A program made the position numbers and the translations under genes. A stretch of 39,496 nt of DNA. Source: Escherichia phage ZH4. The notes under the pieces are model-generated. The model worked only from the letters and a program-made list of their open reading frames with translations. It made no database searches and was not told the origin of the DNA. Shown piece after piece: positions 1 to 39,496 of this stretch (its first letter is position 1; the number at the start of each line of letters is the position of its first letter). Location: the sequence record OM355495.1; one strand, 5' to 3'.

Positions 1-1544
1 ATGCCTTGTGTTTCCGATTCAAACCCTTCAAACGTTATTCCATTGCCACAGTTTGTAGCTATGACATTATCCACAACAATGTCAGCAACATAGCGTTTGA
101 ATCCCATAGCTCCATGAGCACAGTCCCGAAAAACAAGGTTAGACATAGCACAGTTACGACTTCCACCAGCTACACTAGAAGACAGGTAAATGCCCAAGTC
201 TCTTACGTTTTCTACGTATAAACCATTTACCCAACAGTTCTTCGTAGTAGCAAACATCAGCCCTGAGTCTGGGGCATTAACCAGAGACACGTTGGTCAGT
301 GAGCATCTATTACCACCAAAGGTGAGAATATCAGCGACCCCGAACTGGGTGTTTTTTGCTTGGTTCCCGTCAATATGTAAGTCCTTGATGTGTACATCAT
401 CAGCACCCATGTTGTGTACTAGGTAATAAGCCTTAGCGTTATCTATGCAGATATTGTCAGCAAATTTTAGCCAACCACCAGCACCCACAAGGATTGTTTT
501 ATTTTTTATCGATAAGCCTGTGAAAATCCACGGATCTCCATTCTTGTTCTTAGGCGTGATCTTAATCGCACAGTAACCTGGAACAGAACCAGCATAATCA
601 AGAGCAGCCTGCAAAGTCTGTTGATCGTTTTTGCTACCGAACATAAAAGAACGAACATCAACAAAATCGTCAACCTGTAGTTCAAGTTGCCTGCCGTCTG
701 CACGGTCAACAATAACAACACCGTCCCCAGTAGAACCCGTATTAGGAACTACGGCATACTTGTTGTAAATACCTGATGCGGTCTTAGTAGCTACTAACCG
801 TCCTTCTTCTGTGGTATTAGTTCCTAGGTTAGCAAAGGTATCCAACTCTACTGCTATACCACCAATTAAAGATGCCCCACCTGACTCCTTTAATTCTGTT
901 CTCAAGGCAGCGTCACCCACACTAACCCACGCACCTAATCCAATCCCACCGGAAGTTTCAGGAGTTGAACCAGCAGGGACGTTCTTTGGAAGCGTGCCAT
1001 CCCAGCGGTAATAATCACCATCCTCTTCCCATAGCAGTACCTCGTTCCATGTTATAACGTTGAAGCCTTTCTCGAAGGATCGACGGGTAATATAGCCAAT
1101 TAGACCGGATGCCTTGATGCTCTCAGCGATTCGTCGTGCTTCGTCCTCGCTATCCTTAGCGTTGCCAGCAGAGCTGCTAGCAGCATCGGCATATTCCTTC
1201 GCTAAGTCAACCGTTTGGTCTCGACCTTCTTCTGCAATATGGATAGCCTGAAGCTCTGCATTGGTCAGGTCACTAGCTGTCAACACTGAGCCATTCCTGA
1301 AGTCTACCACTAAGTCAGTTCCAGTCTGACGGTGAATACGAACGATGTCGAAACCTGATTGGTCAACCAACATCTCAATCATCGTTGGATTAAGGAAGCG
1401 GTAATCGCTACCAACTTCCAGTACACGGTTCAGGGTAGGGTTAGAGCTATTCACCAGCGTAACAACAACAAACGTTCTGGCTAGGTAGTCGAACTCAATC
1501 CTGTACTGAGTGTTTCCTGAAGGGAATTGTGTAATCGTGGACAT
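1..1544 (-). CDS. Tail fiber / tailspike (T7 gene 17 homolog), N-terminal part; ATG at 1544, ORF runs off the window start and continues at 39369 across the circular junction (whole gene about 751 aa)
   Basis: Own translation of minus strand from ATG at 1544 (RBS AGGAGG upstream) gives [33 protein letters not shown]..., matching the T7 gp17 N-terminal region (FEYLARKFVVVTL). Reading frame is continuous with track ORF 38658..39476 via the 127-bp overlap. Absent from the ORF track only because there is no stop inside the window. Confidence 0.85.
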
Positions 1545-1591
1545 TATGCCTCCTTTGTGATTTTAAATGGAGACCTATGGTAGCGCCTCCA

Positions 1592-1614
1592 GTTTCCTAT
1601 AGTGATAGTTTAGT
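1592..1614 (-). promoter_or_regulatory. Phage RNAP promoter (phi17-like), minus sense CTAAACTATCACTATAGGAAA, predicted +1 near 1597
   Basis: Match to the 11-copy phage promoter family in this window; sits just upstream of the gene 17 start and overlaps the gp16 stop. Confidence 0.8.
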
Positions 1615-4600
1615 CCTTGATGTGGATACCTTGCTCCTCAAACGTTCCCAGTAGCAACTTCTGGGTAATCGGGTCGTTCGGAACCAGTTCACGGAACGTA
1701 TTATACATCCCGGTCATGTAGTCACGCTCGTTGACACGAGTATCGGACTTGAGGTAGCCAGCCAAGTTGTAAGCCGAAGCGCCAACGTTAGCAGCATATC
1801 CGAAAGCTGGAACCTGCTCCAAGAAGTTACCAACAATATTCATCACAGGGTCACTTGTAGCCGCACCATACGCGATGGCACGTTCAGGCTTCTCTGTAGG
1901 CGAACGAGGTAGGATAGACGAACGGAGCAGCTTAGTGTCCTCGTACCCAGCGATACCACCCAGAATGTTAGCTACCCCAAGTGGTCCACCGAGATGTGAA
2001 CTACGTGATAGAGCCGCATATCCAATCATCGTCGGGTCCAGAGCTTGCTTGAGGTAGTCACGGTCTCGACCATCCTGCATAGCGTAGGCCTTGACATGCG
2101 CCTGAGCCATGTAGTAGATGCCAGCAAGACCCATAGAGATCACAGTTGACAGAGCAGCGTCCATCGCTCGGTTGTTCTTCGTGGCGTTATAGAAGGTTCG
2201 CATGGTACGTCCATTGATAGACTTGATGACGAAGTTCTTAAACTGGAGGACAGTCTTAGCGAGAGGACCGTAAGCCTTGGCGTCCATGTTTGACAGCTTA
2301 TGAGGCCGGAGTAACGTTTCGTCAGCGATGGTGTCACCCATACGCCACAAGTCCATAGCCCTTGGGTCCTGACTGAACGCCTTCTTATCCTTGATCGTGT
2401 ACTTCCCGTCTGGACCACGCGTCACTGACTCACGGATTAGGGACTTAATACCCTTCCACTGCTCGTCAGAGATACCAGCGGTCTTCAGCCAGCGGTCATC
2501 GAACTTACGCTTACTGCCAGTCAGACTATGCTCCACGATGTCAGACAGGAAGCCTTGACGCCCAGCATCTAACAGGTAGTTTGTCGTACCGTTGAGGACT
2601 TTAGTGAACGGAGAGCGTACTGCAAGTTCACCAGTGTAATACTTGGCAGAGCCTAAAGCCGTAGCCGTAGGTTTACTCAGGGAGCTGTAAGCTCGGAGGC
2701 GGTCTATAACATCCTGTTTAGACGGACGGATTGAGTCATCCAGTTCCTTACCGAAGATAACATTGTGCAGGTCCTTAATCTCTGAGGCCCCGACCTTCTT
2801 GTTACGGAAGGCTAGGTCACGGAAAATCGGGACTCCATGTAGCAGTGCACGAACGTTACCACGAGCCAGCATACCACCAATCTCCGTTAAGTTCTGAACA
2901 CCCATGTAGGCATTCTTAGCGAAGAACGATAGGTCTGTCATTGTGCGCATAACTGTAGCGAAGGCTGCATCGTCAGCACCATCACGTCGAGCACGACCAG
3001 TGAGAATTTTCAAGGTGTCACGTAAGGTAGATACCTCACCTTTCAACTTGCCGTCATCACCAGCCTTGTTCATCATGGTCTCAACCAAATCCTTCATGTC
3101 CTTCGTTGTCTTGCCTGTACCAGCCATGATAGCAATGTCACCATTAACTCGACGGTTGTAGGCCGGGACAATCTTGTCCATGTCCCACTCACGTAGACTA
3201 TTTACGCTGAAAGCCTTACCATTAGGCAGGATTATTTCCATGTCGTTATCGAACAGGTTGCGAGCCTCAAGGAAGTTATTGTTCTCCAGACCGACCAGAC
3301 CGTTGATGTTTTCTTCCATTACGGATGAACGCTCAAACTGCTCTGTATGGGAGATACCATAAGCCTTATCATTAGCATACTTCTCTACCATATCCATAGT
3401 CACCTCTGGTGCTGCTTGAGATGCGTTACCAGATGTAGTTTCACCAGCAGTAGGGGCCTGATCATCTACAGCAGTCTTCTGCCCTTTGGCAGCTGCCGCA
3501 GCCGCTTCAGCTTCAGTTGTTGCTTTGGTGATTCTGTCTCGGACCTTATCAGCCTGTCCTTTCATGTAGTCGAGACGCTCGGTGTTAATACGGACGTGAG
3601 ACTTCTGGGTCTCAATCATCTGCTTCCGACTCTCAATCTTAACAGGAATGGTCTTGCTCTTAGGCTTAGCAGCTAGCTTTTCTTCCAACTCCTTCAGCTT
3701 AGCTTCATGAGAAGCCAGTCGGTCCTTGGAGTTCTGGAGTTTCTTTTCACGGTCTGCAACTCGCTTCTCAGCGTTGGTAAGTACGTCTTTGAGCTCAGCT
3801 ACCTTATCAATTGCCTGTGTAGCAGCATCGTCCAGTTTCATCTGGTCACGGGCTGTGTTTACAGAAGAACGAGGATTTGGTGCAGTACCCACAGTCTTAC
3901 CTGCTGCTGGTTGAGATGACCGTAACTGCTCTGCTAACATCTCGTCCACTCGCGCCTTGACTTCAGGTCTTGACGCATAGCTTGTCAGCCATGACTTCTT
4001 GATTGCCTCCTGTAATGCCTCTGGGCTTCCAAGCTCCTTGATATAAAGCTGCTTCATCTGAGAACTATAGACTACAGGAACGTAGGTCCCCTTGAATCTA
4101 CTACCCGGAAAGATAGACTGAGCGTCTGTACGGCCAAACATCGCTGGGTTCTCCATCATCTCGCGCTTTGCATCAAACTGGTTCTTCAGCAGGTCATAGA
4201 CTTTCAGTTCCCCCGGAGTAAGTTCAGTCTTCAGGTTTCCGCTACCATCTTCAATCGCCAAAGCTACGCGCTTATAAACATCCTCACGCAGAGCTGAGTT
4301 ATCTCGCCAGAATGCTGTCTGGAAGTATGGGTCCTTGAGCGCCTCAGTAACCGCATCGTCGATGTCGTTGTAGAACCGATGGTCCACAGCACGAAGTCTC
4401 TCGAATACGTCTGACGCAGTGGTCCCGATTTTACCTGAGGCCCCTGACTGCATACCAGTCGGTGAACGCACTAAGTCAGCAGCGACTCCACGAATCTCAG
4501 GGTTCTCAGACCGAAGCAGCTTCAGGCCAATCTCAGTCAGGCCGCCAAGGTTAACACCAGCAGCGGCACGTTCAGGCTCAATCACTTCGTCAAAGACCTG

Positions 4601-5998
4601 ACGTGTCCTAGGATTCAGAGGGTTCTCACCAATCAGGATTGAACCATCTTCGAGTCGTACACTACCCGGCTCGTTCGGAACGTCAGCGAACCTAACTCCT
4701 TGATGACTAAAGGTCTGCTCACCTTCCTGAATAGGGAGACGAGACAGGTCCTGACCGTCAACGTTACGGGCTGTCTCGCGAGCTTCCAGACGTGTAGCTG
4801 GACCAGCGAACTCGTTAGTGTTACGACCTAAGGCTCTGCCTAAGCCATCAGCGATAGCAGTCATACCACCACCGAAGAGAGCACCACCAAGGATAGCTTC
4901 AGCCACATGAGCGTCACCACCAGCCACTGAGGTACGGGCCATCTCAGACACACCAGCCAGTGCTCCAGTTTGAGCAGCCACGGTGAACATCTTGTTTACC
5001 AGCTTACCCCCTTTACCAACCTGTCCAGCGATAGGAACGTAGGTCAGAGGGTCTACACCAGCACCAATCACACCAGCAGCTAACTGGGCACCAGTCCCAG
5101 CCTTGGCCTTCTCTTGGTCCAACTTCTGGTTCTCAAGAGCCAAGTTAATAAGCTCGGTCAGGTTCTGAGGAGACCCGCCAGTAAGGACCCCATAATACTG
5201 AGGCAGAACCCCAGCGTTACGAATCTGGTCCAGCTCCTCGCGAGTCCACTTATGGTTGTTCCATCTGGTAGGGTTAAACACATCGCCAATGACATCCAGT
5301 GAGTCCTCGGTCTGACCAGCGCGGATAGCCACGCCGACCATAGAGTTCTTCACTTCAGCTTCTGTAGCCGAACCGAAACCGAACCATGTAGAGCGGTCCT
5401 CTCGTTCCTGCATGGTATCGCCGGTAGCCTTATAGAACATCTCACCGAACGATTCGTTGGGAGCTTCAGGTGCTTGACCCTCAATATTCAGACCAGCAGC
5501 GGTCGGAAGGTTCTCACCCAGAGCTACTTTAGGTTTAGCCTTGAGTCCTTCCGTGAGTGCGTCAAATACGTTAGCGCTTACTGGTGGAGTCTTTGGGCTA
5601 ATGCCATTGAGTGCTCGTGCGACTCCCTTCTGATAGACTTCAGGGTCGTACCGGGAGCCTGTCTCATGGAAGCTGATAGCTTGAGCCAGAGAAGACAGGG
5701 TGTCAGGGTCCGAAAGGTCGAGACTCTGGGTAGCTGGAATACCAGTTGCAGCCACCACTGAGTCAATATAAGCCTTAGTGTCGTTCTCGTTAGGAGGCGC
5801 CCATCGGTTGATAATCTTCTCGATGGAGTCATAGCCTTGGCGACCGTAACTTAATAAGTTCTTACCCAAGGCCCGCACACCAGACTCTGGGCTATCAAAT
5901 ATTACAAACTCCCCATCATCGCCAATAGCTCCTTCCCATTGGTCCTTAGACTTACGGATATTTCCGGGGTTCGAATTTCTTATACCACGTGTTGCCAT
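1610..5998 (-). CDS. Internal virion protein D (T7 gp16 homolog), 1462 aa, with non-T7 N-terminal domain
   Basis: Track ORF; central and C-terminal regions align with T7 gp16 (e.g. MENPAMFG...SIFPGSRFKGTYVPVVY, NAYMGVQNLTEIGGM). RBS GGAG upstream of ATG. N-terminus (MATRGIRNSNPGNIR...) does not resemble the T7 SLT domain. Confidence 0.9.
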   Translation of the reverse strand: MATRGIRNSNPGNIRKSKDQWEGAIGDDGEFVIFDSPESGVRALGKNLLSYGRQGYDSIEKIINRWAPPNENDTKAYIDSVVAATGIPATQSLDLSDPDTLSSLAQAISFHETGSRYDPEVYQKGVARALNGISPKTPPVSANVFDALTEGLKAKPKVALGENLPTAAGLNIEGQAPEAPNESFGEMFYKATGDTMQEREDRSTWFGFGSATEAEVKNSMVGVAIRAGQTEDSLDVIGDVFNPTRWNNHKWTREELDQIRNAGVLPQYYGVLTGGSPQNLTELINLALENQKLDQEKAKAGTGAQLAAGVIGAGVDPLTYVPIAGQVGKGGKLVNKMFTVAAQTGALAGVSEMARTSVAGGDAHVAEAILGGALFGGGMTAIADGLGRALGRNTNEFAGPATRLEARETARNVDGQDLSRLPIQEGEQTFSHQGVRFADVPNEPGSVRLEDGSILIGENPLNPRTRQVFDEVIEPERAAAGVNLGGLTEIGLKLLRSENPEIRGVAADLVRSPTGMQSGASGKIGTTASDVFERLRAVDHRFYNDIDDAVTEALKDPYFQTAFWRDNSALREDVYKRVALAIEDGSGNLKTELTPGELKVYDLLKNQFDAKREMMENPAMFGRTDAQSIFPGSRFKGTYVPVVYSSQMKQLYIKELGSPEALQEAIKKSWLTSYASRPEVKARVDEMLAEQLRSSQPAAGKTVGTAPNPRSSVNTARDQMKLDDAATQAIDKVAELKDVLTNAEKRVADREKKLQNSKDRLASHEAKLKELEEKLAAKPKSKTIPVKIESRKQMIETQKSHVRINTERLDYMKGQADKVRDRITKATTEAEAAAAAAKGQKTAVDDQAPTAGETTSGNASQAAPEVTMDMVEKYANDKAYGISHTEQFERSSVMEENINGLVGLENNNFLEARNLFDNDMEIILPNGKAFSVNSLREWDMDKIVPAYNRRVNGDIAIMAGTGKTTKDMKDLVETMMNKAGDDGKLKGEVSTLRDTLKILTGRARRDGADDAAFATVMRTMTDLSFFAKNAYMGVQNLTEIGGMLARGNVRALLHGVPIFRDLAFRNKKVGASEIKDLHNVIFGKELDDSIRPSKQDVIDRLRAYSSLSKPTATALGSAKYYTGELAVRSPFTKVLNGTTNYLLDAGRQGFLSDIVEHSLTGSKRKFDDRWLKTAGISDEQWKGIKSLIRESVTRGPDGKYTIKDKKAFSQDPRAMDLWRMGDTIADETLLRPHKLSNMDAKAYGPLAKTVLQFKNFVIKSINGRTMRTFYNATKNNRAMDAALSTVISMGLAGIYYMAQAHVKAYAMQDGRDRDYLKQALDPTMIGYAALSRSSHLGGPLGVANILGGIAGYEDTKLLRSSILPRSPTEKPERAIAYGAATSDPVMNIVGNFLEQVPAFGYAANVGASAYNLAGYLKSDTRVNERDYMTGMYNTFRELVPNDPITQKLLLGTFEEQGIHIKD

Positions 5999-6429
5999 GT
6001 CTTTCTCCTTAAGATATTTCTAATAGAAACCGTACTCACTCCATAGGAACTAGCTAGGAATGAAACCTTTAGGCCGCTAGACCGTATGTTCTTCACATCA
6101 GTCTCTGTCAATTTGGATACTCCTATTGAGCTTCCAGACGCTTGACGACCTCTTTCCACCTTGTCTTTAATGTTGTCAGCCTGAGTTCCAGCCTCAAGAT
6201 GGTCAGGGTTTATGCAGGACGGATTGTCGCACTTATGGCGTACAACATACCCTTCAGGTATAGGACCACTGGCAAGCTCATAAGCTAGTCGATGTGCTCT
6301 ATACTTAACTCTGTTAATCATTATCGTACCATAACCGTCAGAATCTACGGTCCCAGTGAATCGGATACAGCCAGAGCTTTCAGCTACTGACAATTCTGCC
6401 AGTCTCTCACTGGCTGTCCCGTTCTTCAT
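5980..6429 (-). CDS. HNH homing endonuclease (intact), 149 aa
   Basis: HNH motif VVRHKCDNPSCINPDHLEAG plus a C-terminal DNA-binding-like segment KLTETDVKNIR...STVSIRNILRRKTW; RBS GGAG upstream; inserted between gp15 and gp16. Confidence 0.85.
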   Translation of the reverse strand: MKNGTASERLAELSVAESSGCIRFTGTVDSDGYGTIMINRVKYRAHRLAYELASGPIPEGYVVRHKCDNPSCINPDHLEAGTQADNIKDKVERGRQASGSSIGVSKLTETDVKNIRSSGLKVSFLASSYGVSTVSIRNILRRKTWQHVV

Positions 6430-6433
6430 TATG

Positions 6434-8716
6434 TTACTCCTTACCGATTAGTACGTTTGCGATACCCTCCAATGAGACGTCATTATACATCCCTCCGCGC
6501 TTCTCGATGTTGGCCTCTCGGTCAGCTCGACGTTTATCACCAGCAGCTTTAGTCCCGACGATACGCGCTCGCTTGTTAGCGTCACGTTCTGCCTGAGCGT
6601 ATGCGGCATCTTGTGCCTTCTGCTGTTGTTCGCGGTAGAGTTTGCCTACAAGTTCTTTATCGTAGCGAATACGAATAGTCCCTGTAGCGTCTTGGAGGAA
6701 GATAGAGCCGTTCTGTTCAACAACGGACAACTGAGAGTTCACTACCCAACGGTTGGCCTTAATGAGCTGCTTACGAGCGGTTTCGATAATGTCTCGACCT
6801 ACCTGCCACGACTCTGGGTTATCCCCTACCATAAGCTGGTGCTTTGACACCATGCCGATGGACTTACCGTCAGAGCCTTCAGACTGGAACGTTACGGTAT
6901 TTTCATTCAGCCAGCGTTGAGTCTGCTGAGTTGCAGCGTCAGCGTTACCTGTACGATAGTACCATGAGTCCCAGACCTTACGAGCACTTGCGTCAAGAGA
7001 CGTAGGAAGACGCGAAAGGTCCTTATTCCGAGAGTCGTTCTTCAACTCCTGCCACGCCTTGTCTGACTCCATGCGCATCTCACGGCTTTGACTTGCAGCT
7101 TGCTTATCAGCTTCAATCATCGTCTGAGGGTCCAGACCCATCTTGTCCATCTGGTCGAACGTAGAGAACAGCTGAGCTTGGTCAGGATACAGAGCGGCGA
7201 AACTTGAAGGGTCCTGAGTGTAGGCACGCCGAAGAGACTCGAAGCGTTTCATCTTGTCTGGGTCGTACTGTCCACGGATGACAGCAGCTTGCCACTCACC
7301 AGCAGCGTCCTGAGTCAGCGTCTGGAAGGCATTACGGAACGGACCGTTGTTAGTGTCAGCTCTTAACAATGCCACCTTCTGAGCGTCCTTAGCAGCCTCA
7401 GGGATGTCCATCTGGTCAATCTGCTGTAGCTTGGCAGACGCATAGTTGTTCATGTCCGAACGTTTGAACTCGCCTGTAGCATCTGAGACCGGAAGGTCCT
7501 CATAGTTGGTGGACACGTTGTCACCAGCCAGCCGTCTCTGATACACTTGGTCGATGACCAGTTGCTTGTTCTGGGTCTGGATTAACTTAGTGTTCTCCTT
7601 CGCCTGTTCAGCAGACTTACGCTTGACCGCTTCCAGTAAGCTGGCTTCGGCATTAATAAGCATCTGACGCTGAGGCGTTAGTTCTTCACCAGGCTGAAGC
7701 AGGTTGTTCTGCTCCTTGAGTTTCTGAATCTGGGCAAGACCAATGGTTGGGTCATCCTGAAGAATTGCAGACTGAACGCCTAACGCCAAGTCTTCCTGAT
7801 ACTTAGCCACCAGTTTATACTCAGTACCTTGGGCCTCAACCATAGCAGCATTGAAGACGTCAGGTCCTACAATCTCTTCGATGGTAGCGTCAACACCGTT
7901 AAGGGTGATACGCTCGCCACGGACTTGCTGTAGGAAGTTTGAGCCTCCTGACTTCTGGATTGCGTCACGGACCGTCTGGGTTATGACCTCTCGTGCTCTC
8001 TGGTCCGAAGGTATAGCAGCAGTCGTCAGTCCATCCCGAAGGTAGGCCATGAATGTCTTTCCAGACTCAGGCGAACGCATCAGGTCCCCATCGTTAAGGA
8101 ACGAGTTCATCTCAATGCGAGTGTTCAACATTGCTGTCTCTTCAGACTGCTTGCTGAAATACTTATTGAATGACCCGTATATAGCGATGTTTCGGTCCGT
8201 GATGTTATCGTTGAATCCACGCTGGAAGAACTCGTCTGTAGGGTTAATACCCGCCTCTTCAGCATAGGACTTAGCGGCATCCTGAAGTCGCTGGTGGCGA
8301 TACTCTTCCATGTCCTGACGTGTACGGAACTCACCGTTCTGAATCTTAACGTTAATCTCGTCATCCACCGCAAAGGCAGCGTTACGGCCAGTCTTTACTC
8401 GAAGTGCTTCCATAGCGTAAGGGTCATCCTGATATAGCAGTGTGCCGTTCTGGATAGCCTCACGTCTTTGCTGAGGTGTCAGCTTACGGATAATCTCGTT
8501 AGACCGCTCGTCAGCTCTGGTCTTATCCTCGTCCTTGAACTGCTTGTACAATCCTGTCCCAGACTCAACGAAGTTAGTTAATGCACGAGCCAGCCCGGAG
8601 TCCCCAGTCGGAGCCTGAACGTTGGCTGCTTGATAGTTGACGGTGATAGTTTTACCAGGCGCTCTGCCGCGACCCATAGTCCGATTAGCCAGAGCTGATT
8701 CAATATTACTAGCCAT
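6434..8716 (-). CDS. Internal virion protein C (T7 gp15 homolog), 760 aa
   Basis: Strong similarity to T7 gp15 (ADERSNEIIRKLTPQQRREAIQNGTLLYQDDPYAMEALRVKTGRNAA); RBS AGGAGG. Confidence 0.9.
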   Translation of the reverse strand: MASNIESALANRTMGRGRAPGKTITVNYQAANVQAPTGDSGLARALTNFVESGTGLYKQFKDEDKTRADERSNEIIRKLTPQQRREAIQNGTLLYQDDPYAMEALRVKTGRNAAFAVDDEINVKIQNGEFRTRQDMEEYRHQRLQDAAKSYAEEAGINPTDEFFQRGFNDNITDRNIAIYGSFNKYFSKQSEETAMLNTRIEMNSFLNDGDLMRSPESGKTFMAYLRDGLTTAAIPSDQRAREVITQTVRDAIQKSGGSNFLQQVRGERITLNGVDATIEEIVGPDVFNAAMVEAQGTEYKLVAKYQEDLALGVQSAILQDDPTIGLAQIQKLKEQNNLLQPGEELTPQRQMLINAEASLLEAVKRKSAEQAKENTKLIQTQNKQLVIDQVYQRRLAGDNVSTNYEDLPVSDATGEFKRSDMNNYASAKLQQIDQMDIPEAAKDAQKVALLRADTNNGPFRNAFQTLTQDAAGEWQAAVIRGQYDPDKMKRFESLRRAYTQDPSSFAALYPDQAQLFSTFDQMDKMGLDPQTMIEADKQAASQSREMRMESDKAWQELKNDSRNKDLSRLPTSLDASARKVWDSWYYRTGNADAATQQTQRWLNENTVTFQSEGSDGKSIGMVSKHQLMVGDNPESWQVGRDIIETARKQLIKANRWVVNSQLSVVEQNGSIFLQDATGTIRIRYDKELVGKLYREQQQKAQDAAYAQAERDANKRARIVGTKAAGDKRRADREANIEKRGGMYNDVSLEGIANVLIGKE

Positions 8717-8727
8717 TAGTCCTCCTC

Positions 8728-9315
8728 TTAGCTATGACCTGTAGGTGTGCCTTTAGCAGCACTAATTGGTGCAGAACCACCAGAGCTGGACTCTCCAGAG
8801 ATTGACTTACCAGCGGCGTAGCCTTGCATCCCGGCGTTAGCAACATTAAGTGCATGAGCCAGTGGGCTGGTCTTGATGATTTTACCTTGACCACGGATAG
8901 CTGACTTGGTATTCTCAATGTTGGCGATACGGTTCCCGAAGATAGCCGCATAGTCGCGGTTGTAACTTTCGGTAATCCCTGCTCGCTCCTTGACTGTATC
9001 TCCTGCGACCTGACGTTCAATCCTGTCCATAGAGTTACCTTCCAGACCTGACTCAGCCACCGCAGCTCGTACCATACCCTGATTGCGGATACCGTTGAGT
9101 GTGGTCTCTGTCAGTTCAGCCATCTGCTGCTCCTTAAGGTCTCGCTCCTGCATCTTCAGGTTGGCGTCAGAGTAGTTCATCTGCTTAACCATTTCCTGAG
9201 CCTGTCGGTTCTGAGCGTCAATTGCTGCACCTTCGGCCTTGGCCTGCTGGGATGCGGACATAGTGGCCCCGGCTACAGCCATGATACCCATGCCGATACT
9301 TACGGGTTCGCACAT
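8728..9315 (-). CDS. Internal virion protein B (T7 gp14 homolog), 195 aa
   Basis: Starts MCEP... like T7 gp14 (MCWAA...); conserved LEGNSMDRIERQ / RDYAAIF motifs; RBS AGGAGG. Confidence 0.85.
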   Translation of the reverse strand: MCEPVSIGMGIMAVAGATMSASQQAKAEGAAIDAQNRQAQEMVKQMNYSDANLKMQERDLKEQQMAELTETTLNGIRNQGMVRAAVAESGLEGNSMDRIERQVAGDTVKERAGITESYNRDYAAIFGNRIANIENTKSAIRGQGKIIKTSPLAHALNVANAGMQGYAAGKSISGESSSGGSAPISAAKGTPTGHS

Positions 9316-9770
9316 ACGTCCTCCTTAGAGATAGTGAATAGTTGAAAACGCTCACCAGTTACCGGGCTTACAGTCCAATCATCATGGAATTTAGCGCCAA
9401 GCAACTTCAAGAATTTAATGTGAGACTTATTGCCTGACCACACGTAGTTCCAGATGGTCCCGTATTGGTCTAACATTAAGTCCCTGTACTCAGAGATACG
9501 ATTTATGAACTCTCGCTTCTCTTTAGGTCTCAGCTTGTGGACCAGACCGGAAGTCAAGAACCATACGTTATCCCCTTGGTTTCCGCCATAGGCAAACACT
9601 TCGCCTACACCGTTCGTTAAAACCACAGATGACTGGGGTAAATGCTTAAGCAGTCTTTCAGATAGACCCACGGTTGACCCGTAGTTTGCTTTGCACTCAT
9701 TAACATCATCTGCTGAAAGATGCCACAGAAAGTAGTGGACATCTGGTTCCGTAGCCTTGCGAATATACAT
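9300..9770 (-). CDS. Internal virion protein A (T7 gp13-position homolog), 156 aa
   Basis: Track ORF with good RBS between genes 12 and 14, preceded by a phage promoter as in T7 (phi13). Assignment is mainly positional. Confidence 0.65.
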   Translation of the reverse strand: MYIRKATEPDVHYFLWHLSADDVNECKANYGSTVGLSERLLKHLPQSSVVLTNGVGEVFAYGGNQGDNVWFLTSGLVHKLRPKEKREFINRISEYRDLMLDQYGTIWNYVWSGNKSHIKFLKLLGAKFHDDWTVSPVTGERFQLFTISKEDVCANP

Positions 9771-38657: not shown

Positions 38658-39496
38658 TTAATTTGATATTTGTTTCCAGTCAGAACTAGTCAACCCGTGT
38701 GACTTCCACCATGAGTTAGCGCTGTCACTCCATACTTCTTGCCCTATAAAGCGAGGAATTACTGTAGCTACAGGAGTAGGGCCGGATACAACTTGATACC
38801 CATACTTAGCTGGTCCTATAGCATTGTTCAAGATAAAATCTTTAGTTATTCCTCTTGCGCCATTAAACCACTCTAGATCCGTACCGCTAATACCGCTAAT
38901 AAACTCAGGTGAAAACTTAGTGAAACTGCAGCCAGCGTTCACTCGTGCCCCGTTGTAAGCGCTATATCCACTAGCCTGCGTGTTGCTCCAGCGACCACCA
39001 ACCACACTACCGTTGCTGCAATTTAAGAAGTACGCAGCATATCTAGCGAAACCTTCCAGGTTAACGTTTACAAGCTCAAATCCTGATGCACCATTGCACT
39101 GGATGCCATCATTGTTCGGTACACCACTTGTTGCTATTTGTGGGTTAGAGGCATACCCAGTTAAATTTGCACCATTAATAAAAATGCCGGTATTGGTATT
39201 CGCACCAAAGTATATACCAACTCCAGAGCAGTTCTGAACACTCAGGTTATTGATACGAATACCACTGGCATAGTTGAAACTGATAGCTCGTTCAGCCGCA
39301 CGCACACTCCTGTACCCAAAACCAATATCACGAAGGCGTATGTTACTCATAGTGATGTTAGCTGGGTTCATGCCTTGTGTTTCCGATTCAAACCCTTCAA
39401 ACGTTATTCCATTGCCACAGTTTGTAGCTATGACATTATCCACAACAATGTCAGCAACATAGCGTTTGAATCCCATAGCTCCATGAGCACAGTCCC
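38658..39496 (-). CDS. Tail fiber / tailspike (gene 17), C-terminal part with right-handed beta-helix (pectate-lyase-like) domain; continues upstream across the window junction (39370..39496 duplicates 1..127)
   Basis: Track ORF 38658..39476 is in frame with the minus-strand ORF from 1544. Repeated beta-helix-like rungs ([48 protein letters not shown]) typical of phage tailspike depolymerases. Confidence 0.85.
   Translation of the reverse strand, partial: DCAHGAMGFKRYVADIVVDNVIATNCGNGITFEGFESETQGMNPANITMSNIRLRDIGFGYRSVRAAERAISFNYASGIRINNLSVQNCSGVGIYFGANTNTGIFINGANLTGYASNPQIATSGVPNNDGIQCNGASGFELVNVNLEGFARYAAYFLNCSNGSVVGGRWSNTQASGYSAYNGARVNAGCSFTKFSPEFISGISGTDLEWFNGARGITKDFILNNAIGPAKYGYQVVSGPTPVATVIPRFIGQEVWSDSANSWWKSHGLTSSDWKQISN
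39370..39496. repeat. 127-bp exact duplicate of window positions 1..127 (circular-assembly overlap, lies inside gene 17)
   Basis: Direct comparison of the window ends; ORF-track coordinates confirm an offset of 39,369. Confidence 0.9.

Follow-up and report, generated by a model that had tools for sequence, protein, structure and literature searches.

The window, a stretch of 39,496 nucleotides from Escherichia phage ZH4, contains a T7-type late block with the gene order gp14, gp15, HNH ORF, gp16, gp17, which is the synteny expected for gp16. The gp16 open reading frame is intact and, by the ORF list and its translation, specifies a product of 1462 aa. This protein matches PHROG 342 along its full length in a profile search (1062 bits, residues 6-1460), and the gene is 94.5% identical at the nucleotide level to gp16 of the Kayfunavirus ST31 across 100% of the gene. 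The features of the locus are as follows.

8728..9315, minus strand: gp14 (Pfam T7_gp14, 3.8e-46)
6434..8716, minus strand: gp15, 760 aa, in the late-gene block
Intercalated between gp15 and gp16, immediately upstream of gp16: HNH ORF
1610..5998, minus strand: gp16 CDS (internal virion protein D, ejectosome component), 1462 aa plus stop
5624..5998, minus strand: residues 1-125, putative muralytic-type domain of the PHA02564/Enc34-endolysin type, replacing the T7 SLT domain
5663..5665, minus strand: codon of Glu112, predicted catalytic Glu and equivalent of Enc34 Glu131 (pairwise alignment, conservation)
5381..5623, minus strand: residues 126-206, linker and equivalent of the T7 'molecular tape' (T7 about 153-228; alignment to 7eyb_I starts at 126/153)
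3926..5380, minus strand: backbone residues 207-691, T7 TMH I equivalent and first part of the gp16-C hub (T7 alignment)
3413..3925, minus strand: accessory insert, residues 692-862, 171 aa (gap in the T7 and 9vvp alignments, and mafft alignments)
3668..3874, minus strand: predicted first helix of the hairpin, residues about 709-777 (helix 49-117 in the AF2 model built on residues 661-892, pLDDT >90)
3653..3667, minus strand: predicted tip of the hairpin, residues 778-782 (KPKSK), a basic stretch with a proline (break between the AF2 helices)
3464..3652, minus strand: predicted hairpin helix 2, residues about 783-845, with an Ala-rich end (AF2 helix 123-185 of the model; heptad pattern)
1613..3412, minus strand: backbone residues 863-1462, rest of gp16-C and TMH II equivalent (aligns with T7 719-1314)
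3284..3358, minus strand: clamp stretch, residues 881-905 (equivalents of T7 gp16 G737, I754 and E761)
Start at 1544, minus strand: gp17, in the late-gene block

In a phmmer search against PDB chains, T7 gp16 (7eyb_I, 1318 aa) aligned in two blocks, residues 126-690 with T7 153-715 (557.8 bits, E near 0) and residues 863-1461 with T7 719-1314 (731.9 bits, E near 0), and gave no alignment before residue 126; E1004 Gp29 aligned with residues 1-691 and 863-1462. T7-type homology begins at the linker/tape region, at residue 126. The first-pass annotation, made from the sequence alone, had named the protein gp16 and aligned its central and C-terminal parts with the T7 protein; the former is borne out by the full-length PHROG match, the T7 and E1004 matches and synteny, and the latter by the two phmmer blocks. 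Its estimate of a product about 140 aa longer than T7 gp16 was also close, as the excess is 144 aa (1462 - 1318), comprising the 171 residues of the insert, minus the few residues of the linker that it replaces and about 27 residues for the shorter N-terminal domain. The gene product, gp16, consists of three separable modules; no ejection (internal core) protein of this Kayfunavirus-like phage of the T7 group is larger.

The first of these modules, as previously noted for the first 130 or so residues, does not resemble the T7 SLT domain: the T7 alignment starts at residue 126, and Pfam SLT, run against residues 1-162, returned no match at E<=10, whereas the T7 gp16 N-terminus as a control scored 5e-31. 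The domain thus gave no match to the profile or fold of SLT / GH23 lytic transglycosylases. Residues 3-123 match the catalytic domain of Enc34 ORF39 (7q47_A, E 6.8e-14), and 104 homologues of the domain were found at E<=1e-5, many of them carrying the name 'structural protein (P5)'. Pairwise alignment with Enc34 pairs the blocks FHETGS/RHENGS, NRWAPP/ERWAPP and KAYIDS/TAYANQ, and places Glu112, Trp66 and Tyr77 as counterparts of Enc34 Glu131, Trp79 and Tyr95, whose roles have been described (PMC8943055). Across an alignment of 63 homologues E112 never varies, with W66 and Y77 at least 90% conserved, and the domain fits the all-helical permuted lysozyme alpha-lobe fold of the PHA02564 / Enc34 type. 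Muralytic activity has been demonstrated experimentally for Enc34 ORF39deltaC (PMC8943055) and M4LysdeltaTMD (PMC7143992); as for bond specificity, the M4Lys paper assigns endopeptidase activity to the family (PMC7143992), and the Enc34 authors inferred glucosaminidase chemistry from structure (PMC8943055).

From these alignments we infer that residues 1-125 form an Enc34/PHA02564-type lysozyme-like peptidoglycan glycosidase, with Glu112 as the putative catalytic residue and Trp66 and Tyr77 in supporting roles, and that it probably cleaves by hydrolysis, in the manner of GH73, and not by lytic transglycosylation. The opposite reading, that this is an SLT (GH23) lytic transglycosylase which has diverged strongly and that nothing was swapped, strikes us as very improbable, even though the Enc34 authors relate the PHA02564 fold remotely, with circular permutation, to GH73 and GH23 enzymes alike and find the catalytic Glu superimposable (PMC8943055). 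The earlier description of a swapped domain stands insofar as another muralytic family takes the place of SLT, but the swap is not unusual, for the PHA02564-type N-domain is a known non-T7 type and normal for the genus. The exchange falls exactly at the domain boundary of the T7 SLT lytic transglycosylase, in which the catalytic Glu is E37. Because PHROG 342 covers both types, an SLT domain with its catalytic Glu marks the T7 subtype and not the wider gp16 family. The suggestion that the swap reflects a different host peptidoglycan chemistry is unsupported, since both types share hosts: SLT-type gp16 is found in E. coli phages T7 and NC-A, and PHA02564-type gp16 in E. coli phages ZH4 and ST31.

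The backbone shares 52% aa identity with T7 upstream of the insert and 55.6% in residues 863-1462. T7 gp16 region boundaries and topology follow a published review, in which the cytoplasmic placement of gp16-C is a composite model and not a solved structure, and the ring formed by gp16 lies at the distal position in the core stack (PMC8954989); the same position is given to this type of gp16 in the description of the E1004 core-stack entry 9VVP. An ungapped alignment of residues 863-962 with T7 719-818 sets an offset of 144, under which the translation conserves T7 G737, I754 and E761 as G881, I898 and E905; mutations at these T7 positions, the 'clamp' stretch, result in transcription-independent genome entry (PMC8954989). 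The clamp stretch starts 19 residues after the end of the insert. In T7, the gp16 'clamp' limits entry to the first ~850 bp.

The charged, alanine-rich helical insertion that had been placed at roughly 3400..3950 was indeed recovered, at nt 3413-3925, with 34% charged residues, 16% Ala and a net charge of +8. Both of its helices were predicted at pLDDT >90 by AF2, in a single-sequence prediction of the excised fragment of residues 661-892, and in the best register heptad a/d positions are hydrophobic or Ala at 68% in helix 1 and 78% in helix 2. With two long amphipathic helices, heptads and a short turn, the predicted insert has the make-up of an antiparallel coiled-coil hairpin, modelled as ~65+65 residues and ~95-100 Angstrom long, on two disordered linkers. 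Weak matches of the insert were to SMC and Rad50 coiled coils, fold matches of the hairpin were to generic coiled coils only, and Pfam returned for residues 692-862 at E<=1 only weak coiled-coil-like noise. We found no functional motif in the hairpin, no homologue of the insert outside gp16, and no repeat or paralogue of it elsewhere in the ZH4 genome. An intein or homing element was considered and rejected, as residues 692-862 have no initial Cys/Ser, no terminal His-Asn and no Pfam domain.

Of about 1281 phage records with gp16, just 19 have the insert, always inside gp16, and its carriers span three genera, Kayfunavirus, Teseptimavirus and Berlinvirus. Flank-only tblastn of a sample drawn from the 1281 records found 58 of 60 gp16 genes (~97%) to be without it, as are those of T7, E1004 and phiYIO1-1. 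Independent isolates, among them ST31, PH1061, CY1 and Bas105, carry the same insert, which is thus not an assembly artefact. Across genera the hairpin core is 89-95% identical in nucleotides, compared with 57-62% for the gp16 backbones, and a similar disparity is seen in amino acid identity (82-84% versus 52-56%) and in dS, at 0.34-0.40 in the hairpin core versus 1.5-3 in the flanks. The dN/dS of the insert, 0.02-0.18, is as low as that of the essential flanks and indicates purifying selection. At some point gp16 acquired the cassette, which has since moved by recombination among Kayfunavirus, Teseptimavirus and Berlinvirus and is kept by purifying selection; it is the rarer and more informative feature of the gene, overlooked as such by the first-pass annotation.

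The same gp16 loop receives a GNAT-like domain of ~110-155 aa in P7124, PP74 and pO103, and in phage A7 the hairpin and a GNAT-like module are both at the site. The PP74 cassette passes the Pfam GNAT (PF00583) cut-off, with 25.9 bits against 20.7. The position is an alternative-cassette site, holding an acetyltransferase-like domain in other phages and the hairpin in ZH4, and the loop itself would be permissive and solvent-exposed.

The best explanation, and in our judgement a probable one, is a three-module gp16 that combines an Enc34-type lysin, a T7-like backbone and a laterally exchanged accessory hairpin cassette. By analogy with T7, the N-domain would be released into the periplasm upon infection and, beside the gp15 tunnel, open the murein locally. 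The backbone, with its tape, two membrane-inserting regions and gp16-C hub, would work as in T7 gp16, making up the section of the ejectosome at the inner membrane and in the cytoplasm and controlling DNA entry. The hairpin cassette sits in a gp16-C loop, 19 residues before the DNA 'clamp' positions, as a backbone-independent add-on that would travel into the cell with gp16. On our best reading it is a laterally exchanged accessory module on a cytoplasm-delivered gp16 hub, most likely serving as a protruding binding arm for which DNA, a host protein and the face of the inner membrane are candidate partners. Such an arm would modulate the early stage of genome entry or the interaction with the host and be dispensable for the basic ejectosome, although, given a hairpin with no motif, homologue or non-generic fold match, it is one guess among several.

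Interchangeable modules at one site, together with their movement between genera and the selection upon them, point to an add-on function independent of the scaffold. If the hairpin were instead purely virion-structural, four copies would project off the gp16 ring in the internal core and help to secure or arrange either the end of the packaged DNA or the core stack, with no role after ejection. The net charge of +8 and 34% charged residues are compatible with DNA contact, gp16 is the distal core-stack ring in both T7 and E1004 (PMC8954989; 9vvp description), and purifying selection would fit any functional role. However, ~97% of gp16-bearing phages assemble the same core without the insert, phiYIO1-1 and E1004 do so with near-identical backbones (95% aa identity in the flanks), and the same cassette works on backbones that are merely 52-56% identical; moreover, a packing role hardly accounts for the presence of an enzyme-like GNAT domain at the same site. 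We consider a purely structural role unlikely.

The loop between T7 gp16 residues 715 and 719 may, as a tentative possibility, be an ejectosome cargo-delivery locus whose modules are injected into the cytoplasm as ready-made effectors ahead of the genome, the hairpin binding a host factor or the incoming DNA so as to defeat a defence or retune the clamp. On a reading that we hold to be possible yet doubtful, the insert would be a pre-made cytoplasmic effector that binds and neutralises or recruits a host protein (a defence system, RNA polymerase or a membrane factor) before phage expression. Cassettes exchanged independently of the backbone and under selection are consistent with this, as are a GNAT-like enzyme domain as the alternative cassette and the location of the site in a part of gp16 modelled as cytoplasmic; another ejectosome protein is said, in a preprint title (10.1101/2025.07.23.666291), to inhibit CBASS. 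Against it, the hairpin has no homology to known anti-defence proteins and only generic fold matches, we know of no partner for it, the cytoplasmic location of the site is itself a model, and the few gp16 copies that enter per infection would limit stoichiometric inhibition. A neutral or selfish in-frame insertion, such as a mobile-element remnant or intein-like sequence tolerated in a permissive loop, would agree with a rare, patchy and laterally spread insert and with the HNH homing endonuclease gene that adjoins gp16 upstream in ZH4. We give this almost no credence: the dN/dS of 0.02-0.18 is as low as that of the essential flanks, the insert contains no nuclease, Hint or intein motif and has no Pfam match or repeat or paralogue elsewhere in the genome, and HNH and insert do not correlate, with ST31 and Bas105 carrying the insert without HNH, and EPr2 and EFA-1 carrying HNH without the insert.

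As a known, genus-typical alternative lysin module, the N-terminal swap carries little weight beyond illustrating how mosaic ejection proteins are, and there is more to gain from following up the central cassette. Hardly any phage proteins enter the cell ahead of phage gene expression, but gp16 does, and the drawing in of DNA is controlled by its hub region. Action of the modules in the cytoplasm would give T7-like phages a simple way to deliver pre-made effectors and would make the loop a natural site for cargo engineering in therapeutic T7-like phages; were they to act inside the capsid, they would report on the contact between core stack and DNA. The hypothesis is directly testable, because near-isogenic natural pairs exist with the cassette (ZH4/ST31) and without it (phiYIO1-1/E1004).

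Among known systems, the Kayfunavirus phages ST31 (ARW56874.1) and PH1061 (WKV16816.1) resemble ZH4 in gp16 length (1462 aa), N-domain and hairpin insert, with whole-gene DNA identities to ZH4 of 94.5% and 94.2% and insert aa identities of 95% and 93%, respectively, and only point differences from ZH4; PH1061 has the upstream HNH gene like ZH4, whereas ST31 has no HNH ORF. E1004 Gp29 (PDB 9VVP, 'Core proteins of the bacteriophage E1004') matches ZH4 gp16 almost residue for residue across 1-691 and 863-1462, its PHA02564-type N-domain included, but is 1295 aa long, with a 5-residue linker in place of the 171 residues in ZH4. Gp29 is modelled in the deposited 9VVP structure, which places this type of gp16 in the internal core stack and indirectly supports packaging of ZH4 gp16 in the capsid and its ejection into the host envelope. 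T7 gp16 (PDB 7EYB, 7K5C, 6YT5) is homologous from the tape to the C-terminus (52-56% aa identity) and has the same gene order, but its residues 1-156 form an SLT (GH23) lytic transglycosylase where ZH4 has the Enc34-type domain, and it has a linker of 3-7 residues where ZH4 has the hairpin cassette. The Enc34 ORF39 endolysin (PDB 7Q47) and BSPM4 M4Lys, of CDD family PHA02564, are stand-alone endolysins with C-terminal transmembrane helices that act at lysis, whereas ZH4 has the domain as part of an ejection protein, where it would work during entry. Finally, Berlinvirus PP74 and pO103, Klebsiella phage P7124 and Shigella phage A7 have an insertion at the identical gp16 loop, bounded by similar low-complexity linkers, in which the cassette is a GNAT-like domain and not a coiled coil as in ZH4, with A7 gp16 also bearing the same hairpin as ZH4.

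The gp16 gene of Escherichia phage ZH4 is an unbroken open reading frame (1610..5998, minus strand) encoding a product of 1462 aa, and its DNA is 94.5% identical over the full length to that of Kayfunavirus ST31 gp16 and 94.2% identical to that of PH1061. The protein is gp16: comparing it with all PDB chains using phmmer, we found that T7 gp16 (7eyb_I) aligns to residues 126-690 (T7 153-715) and again to residues 863-1461 (T7 719-1314). The closest solved relative, the 1295-aa Gp29 from E. coli phage E1004 (9vvp, deposited as 'Core proteins of the bacteriophage E1004'), is nearly identical to residues 1-691 and 863-1462. Since the T7 match begins at residue 126 and skips residues 692-862, the protein has a start of about 125 residues that is unlike T7, as well as an extra central segment (nt 3413-3925) that neither T7 gp16 nor E1004 Gp29 contains. 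Both features had been proposed in the first-pass annotation, and its estimate that the protein is about 140 aa longer than T7 gp16 agrees with the actual difference of 144 aa.

The window represents a complete T7-like genome assembled in circularly permuted form, as follows from the identity of positions 1..127 to 39370..39496, a 127-nt end overlap that leaves a 39,369-bp circle; this circularised assembly does not mark where the physical ends and terminal repeats truly lie. Every phage gene that can be recognised is on the minus strand, and the late block runs gp14 (Pfam T7_gp14, 3.8e-46), gp15 (760 aa), an HNH endonuclease ORF (149 aa), gp16 and the gp17 tailspike. The features that border gp16 are as follows.

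Features bordering gp16
5980..6429, minus strand: HNH homing-endonuclease ORF, 149 aa (Pfam HNH_3 1.8e-16; PHROG 59 4e-35)
1596..1605, minus strand: promoter core TCACTATAGG, phi17 equivalent, in the 65-nt gp16-gp17 gap; nine further minus-strand sites
1544..1 continuing 39369..38658, across the window junction, minus strand: gp17 tailspike, 751 aa (PF03906, PF18668, PF13229)

The phage-promoter core has 10 coding-strand copies, nine exact and one with a single mismatch; counting both strands there are 11 matches, where chance would give 2.1. The domains of gp17, namely a T7 tail-fibre N-terminal adaptor (PF03906), Tail_spike_N (PF18668) and a right-handed beta-helix (PF13229), indicate that it is a receptor-binding protein of the depolymerase type, not a fibre like that of T7; in the ORF list it is represented by its 3' part alone, an ORF of 272 aa (38658..39476). 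The HNH ORF, situated between gp15 and gp16 and overlapping the gp16 start by 19 nt, has a counterpart in the same position in PH1061 and none in ST31, Bas105 or phiYIO1-1. HNH gene and insert assort independently, and we rejected a link between them, as well as an intein or mobile-element reading of the insert.

At the N-terminus, the replacement segment matches the endolysin of Hafnia phage Enc34 in its catalytic domain (7Q47; E 6.8e-14). The residues singled out in the Enc34 study, Glu131, Trp79 and Tyr95 (PMC8943055), align to Glu112, Trp66 and Tyr77 of the window gp16, and Glu112 is invariant across the family alignment. In this family (CDD PHA02564), peptidoglycan degradation has been demonstrated for two proteins (PMC8943055; PMC7143992), and the Enc34 authors favour a GH73-like N-acetylglucosaminidase chemistry (PMC8943055). 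A merely diverged SLT domain would be the alternative, and we consider it very improbable, as residues 1-162 had no Pfam match even at E<=10 while the SLT controls scored 5e-31 (T7 gp16 N-terminus) and 4.6e-26 (A7). The swap point coincides exactly with the T7 lytic transglycosylase boundary (T7 1-156), downstream of which the 'molecular tape' is conserved. We conclude that the N-domain is a real module replacement which, judged by sequence, belongs to a lysin family other than the T7 SLT type and retains the putative catalytic residues. Its chemistry probably differs from that of T7 too. Coliphages carry both lysin types, so the suggestion that the swap answers to a different host peptidoglycan is unsupported. 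This N-domain type is found in 757 phage records, about 220 of them Kayfunavirus-type gp16 and the others stand-alone endolysins or 'structural proteins' from many phage groups; the swap is the normal state of the genus, has been annotated before and can be seen in a structure already deposited.

The central segment is folded as a hairpin in a single-sequence AF2 prediction covering residues 661-892, where two long helices (709-777 and 783-845), modelled with pLDDT >90, are joined by a basic tip (KPKSK) and flanked on both sides by low-confidence linkers. Both predicted helices have a heptad pattern, and the insert is 34% charged and 16% Ala, with a net charge of +8. Profile matches to it amounted to weak coiled-coil noise (SMC, Rad50), and a Foldseek search with the hairpin model returned only generic hairpins, of the coiled-coil or BAR/PspA/colicin type and none of them reaching E<=0.001, so that we drew no functional inference from them. 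Two antisense open frames lie opposite the insert-coding segment.

Antisense open frames
3347..3676, plus strand: 109 aa
3707..3919, plus strand: 70 aa

The plus strand opposite the insert has no recognisable phage gene and no promoter-core match, and these frames are most likely by-products of biased coiled-coil codon usage.

To the extent of the databases searched, the hairpin is confined to gp16 and is rare. Neither a word-indexed search (one match) nor an exhaustive phmmer search of 1.84 billion representative proteins detected a homologue outside gp16; of the four phmmer matches at E<=1e-3, three are repetitive coiled-coil proteins and a single one is real, namely P0001, a fragment (176 aa) of a P483-like gp16. 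A search of IMG/VR yielded only four loci, the same isolates ST31, P483, NC-A and A7. The insert is present in 19 of 50,697 phage records, at a constant position in gp16. A tblastn search with the flanks only identified 1281 gp16-bearing records, and of 60 records sampled evenly from these, 58 lack any insert. Internal duplication was rejected as the origin of the hairpin, since neither tblastn nor blastn found a significant match for it anywhere else in the window. The 19 records span three genera.

Hairpin carriers by genus
Kayfunavirus: ZH4 (the window phage), ST31, PH1061, CY1, Bas105, Kc166A
Teseptimavirus: NC-A, Bas65
Berlinvirus: PZJ0206, P483, A7

Between these genera the gp16 backbone is 57-62% identical in nucleotides and 52-56% in amino acids, compared with 89-95% and 82-84% in the hairpin core; in a sliding-window comparison with NC-A, the high-identity patch covers approximately residues 661-870. 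The core has a synonymous divergence of 0.34-0.40, versus 1.5-3 (saturated) in the flanks, and dN/dS in the core (0.02-0.18) is as low as in the flanks. This contrast with the backbone, combined with the low dN/dS, indicates that the cassette moved between genera by recombination and has been maintained as a protein. Cis elements were rejected as the cause of the nucleotide conservation, since all 10 coding-strand promoter matches lie outside gp16, with none inside the insert, and no Rfam family was found in window 1-9500. Directly upstream of the cassette (window-equivalent residues 655-690), the identity of Teseptimavirus NC-A to T7 falls from 84-98% to 68%, while the same flank is about 82% identical to the window, and 90-93% in the 30-codon windows closest to the cassette; the observation on this flank concerns the gp16 loci of NC-A and Bas65. 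About 30 codons of the flank are therefore foreign and belong to the transferred patch, which makes homologous recombination within conserved stretches of gp16 the probable route. Hairpin diversity is highest among Kayfunavirus backbones (77-96%), weakly suggesting that the hairpin is older there. Lysin type (SLT or PHA02564) and cassette presence assort independently.

The same loop also accommodates a second type of cassette. In Shigella phage A7, gp16 (1644 aa; L008 1290-6224) has about 154 extra residues right after the hairpin, with a GNAT motif-A signature. By tblastn, this GNAT-like module lies inside gp16 in 14 of 15 matching records, mostly without the hairpin, the fifteenth being a weak match (32% identity) to an Acinetobacter phage. 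Alignment places the module, of about 110-155 aa, in the same loop in two Berlinvirus phages and a Kayfunavirus-like Klebsiella phage.

GNAT-like-bearing gp16 loci
L013 1380-5837: Klebsiella phage P7124
L014 1320-5828: Berlinvirus PP74
L015 1320-5831: Berlinvirus pO103

The PP74 copy, at 25.9 bits, passes the Pfam GNAT (PF00583) gathering score of 20.7. Similar low-complexity linkers border the cassettes, with an '...AENFLR...' / '...ENFLR...' motif duplicated in A7. Given hairpin-free, hairpin, GNAT-like and tandem genes, the loop has four states: empty, hairpin, GNAT-like and both.

The insert is real and rare, a predicted hairpin transferred laterally and selectively maintained at a site that takes alternative cassettes. 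In a composite T7 model, the lysin at gp16 residues 1-156 is periplasmic, the tape (157-228) lies on the gp15 tunnel, two regions (243-410 and 1119-1290) insert into the membrane, and residues 411-1118 form a DNA-binding hub assigned to the cytoplasmic toroid (PMC8954989). The hub mutations G737D, I754T and E761K permit transcription-independent entry of the whole T7 genome (PMC8954989); these positions are conserved in the window gp16 as G881, I898 and E905, the first of which lies 19 residues downstream of the insert end. We propose that the insertion loop would be exposed on gp16 and that the cassette would enter the cell riding on the hub region, gp16-C, where the hairpin most likely serves as a protruding binding arm for DNA, a membrane face or a host factor, modulating entry or host interaction. 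Effector delivery, a more specific version of the binding arm, is a tentative option that we regard as somewhat doubtful; the GNAT-like cassette, if active, would mean that an ejection protein delivers an acetyltransferase. A purely capsid-structural role of the hairpin is unlikely, and a neutral or selfish insertion is highly improbable given its low dN/dS.

The N-terminal half of these observations is already known, and insert-bearing sequences, of ST31 and others, are already in GenBank under generic names; in the searchable literature, an incomplete library, we found no published description of the central cassette or of a polymorphic gp16 site. Considering the known mosaicism of ejection proteins, the cassette is not surprising in kind, and it offers a clean, testable handle on the role of gp16-C in the cell. 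In place of residues 692-862, the gp16 of phiYIO1-1 has the linker 'LESDPTLTPEGLAA' at the cassette site.
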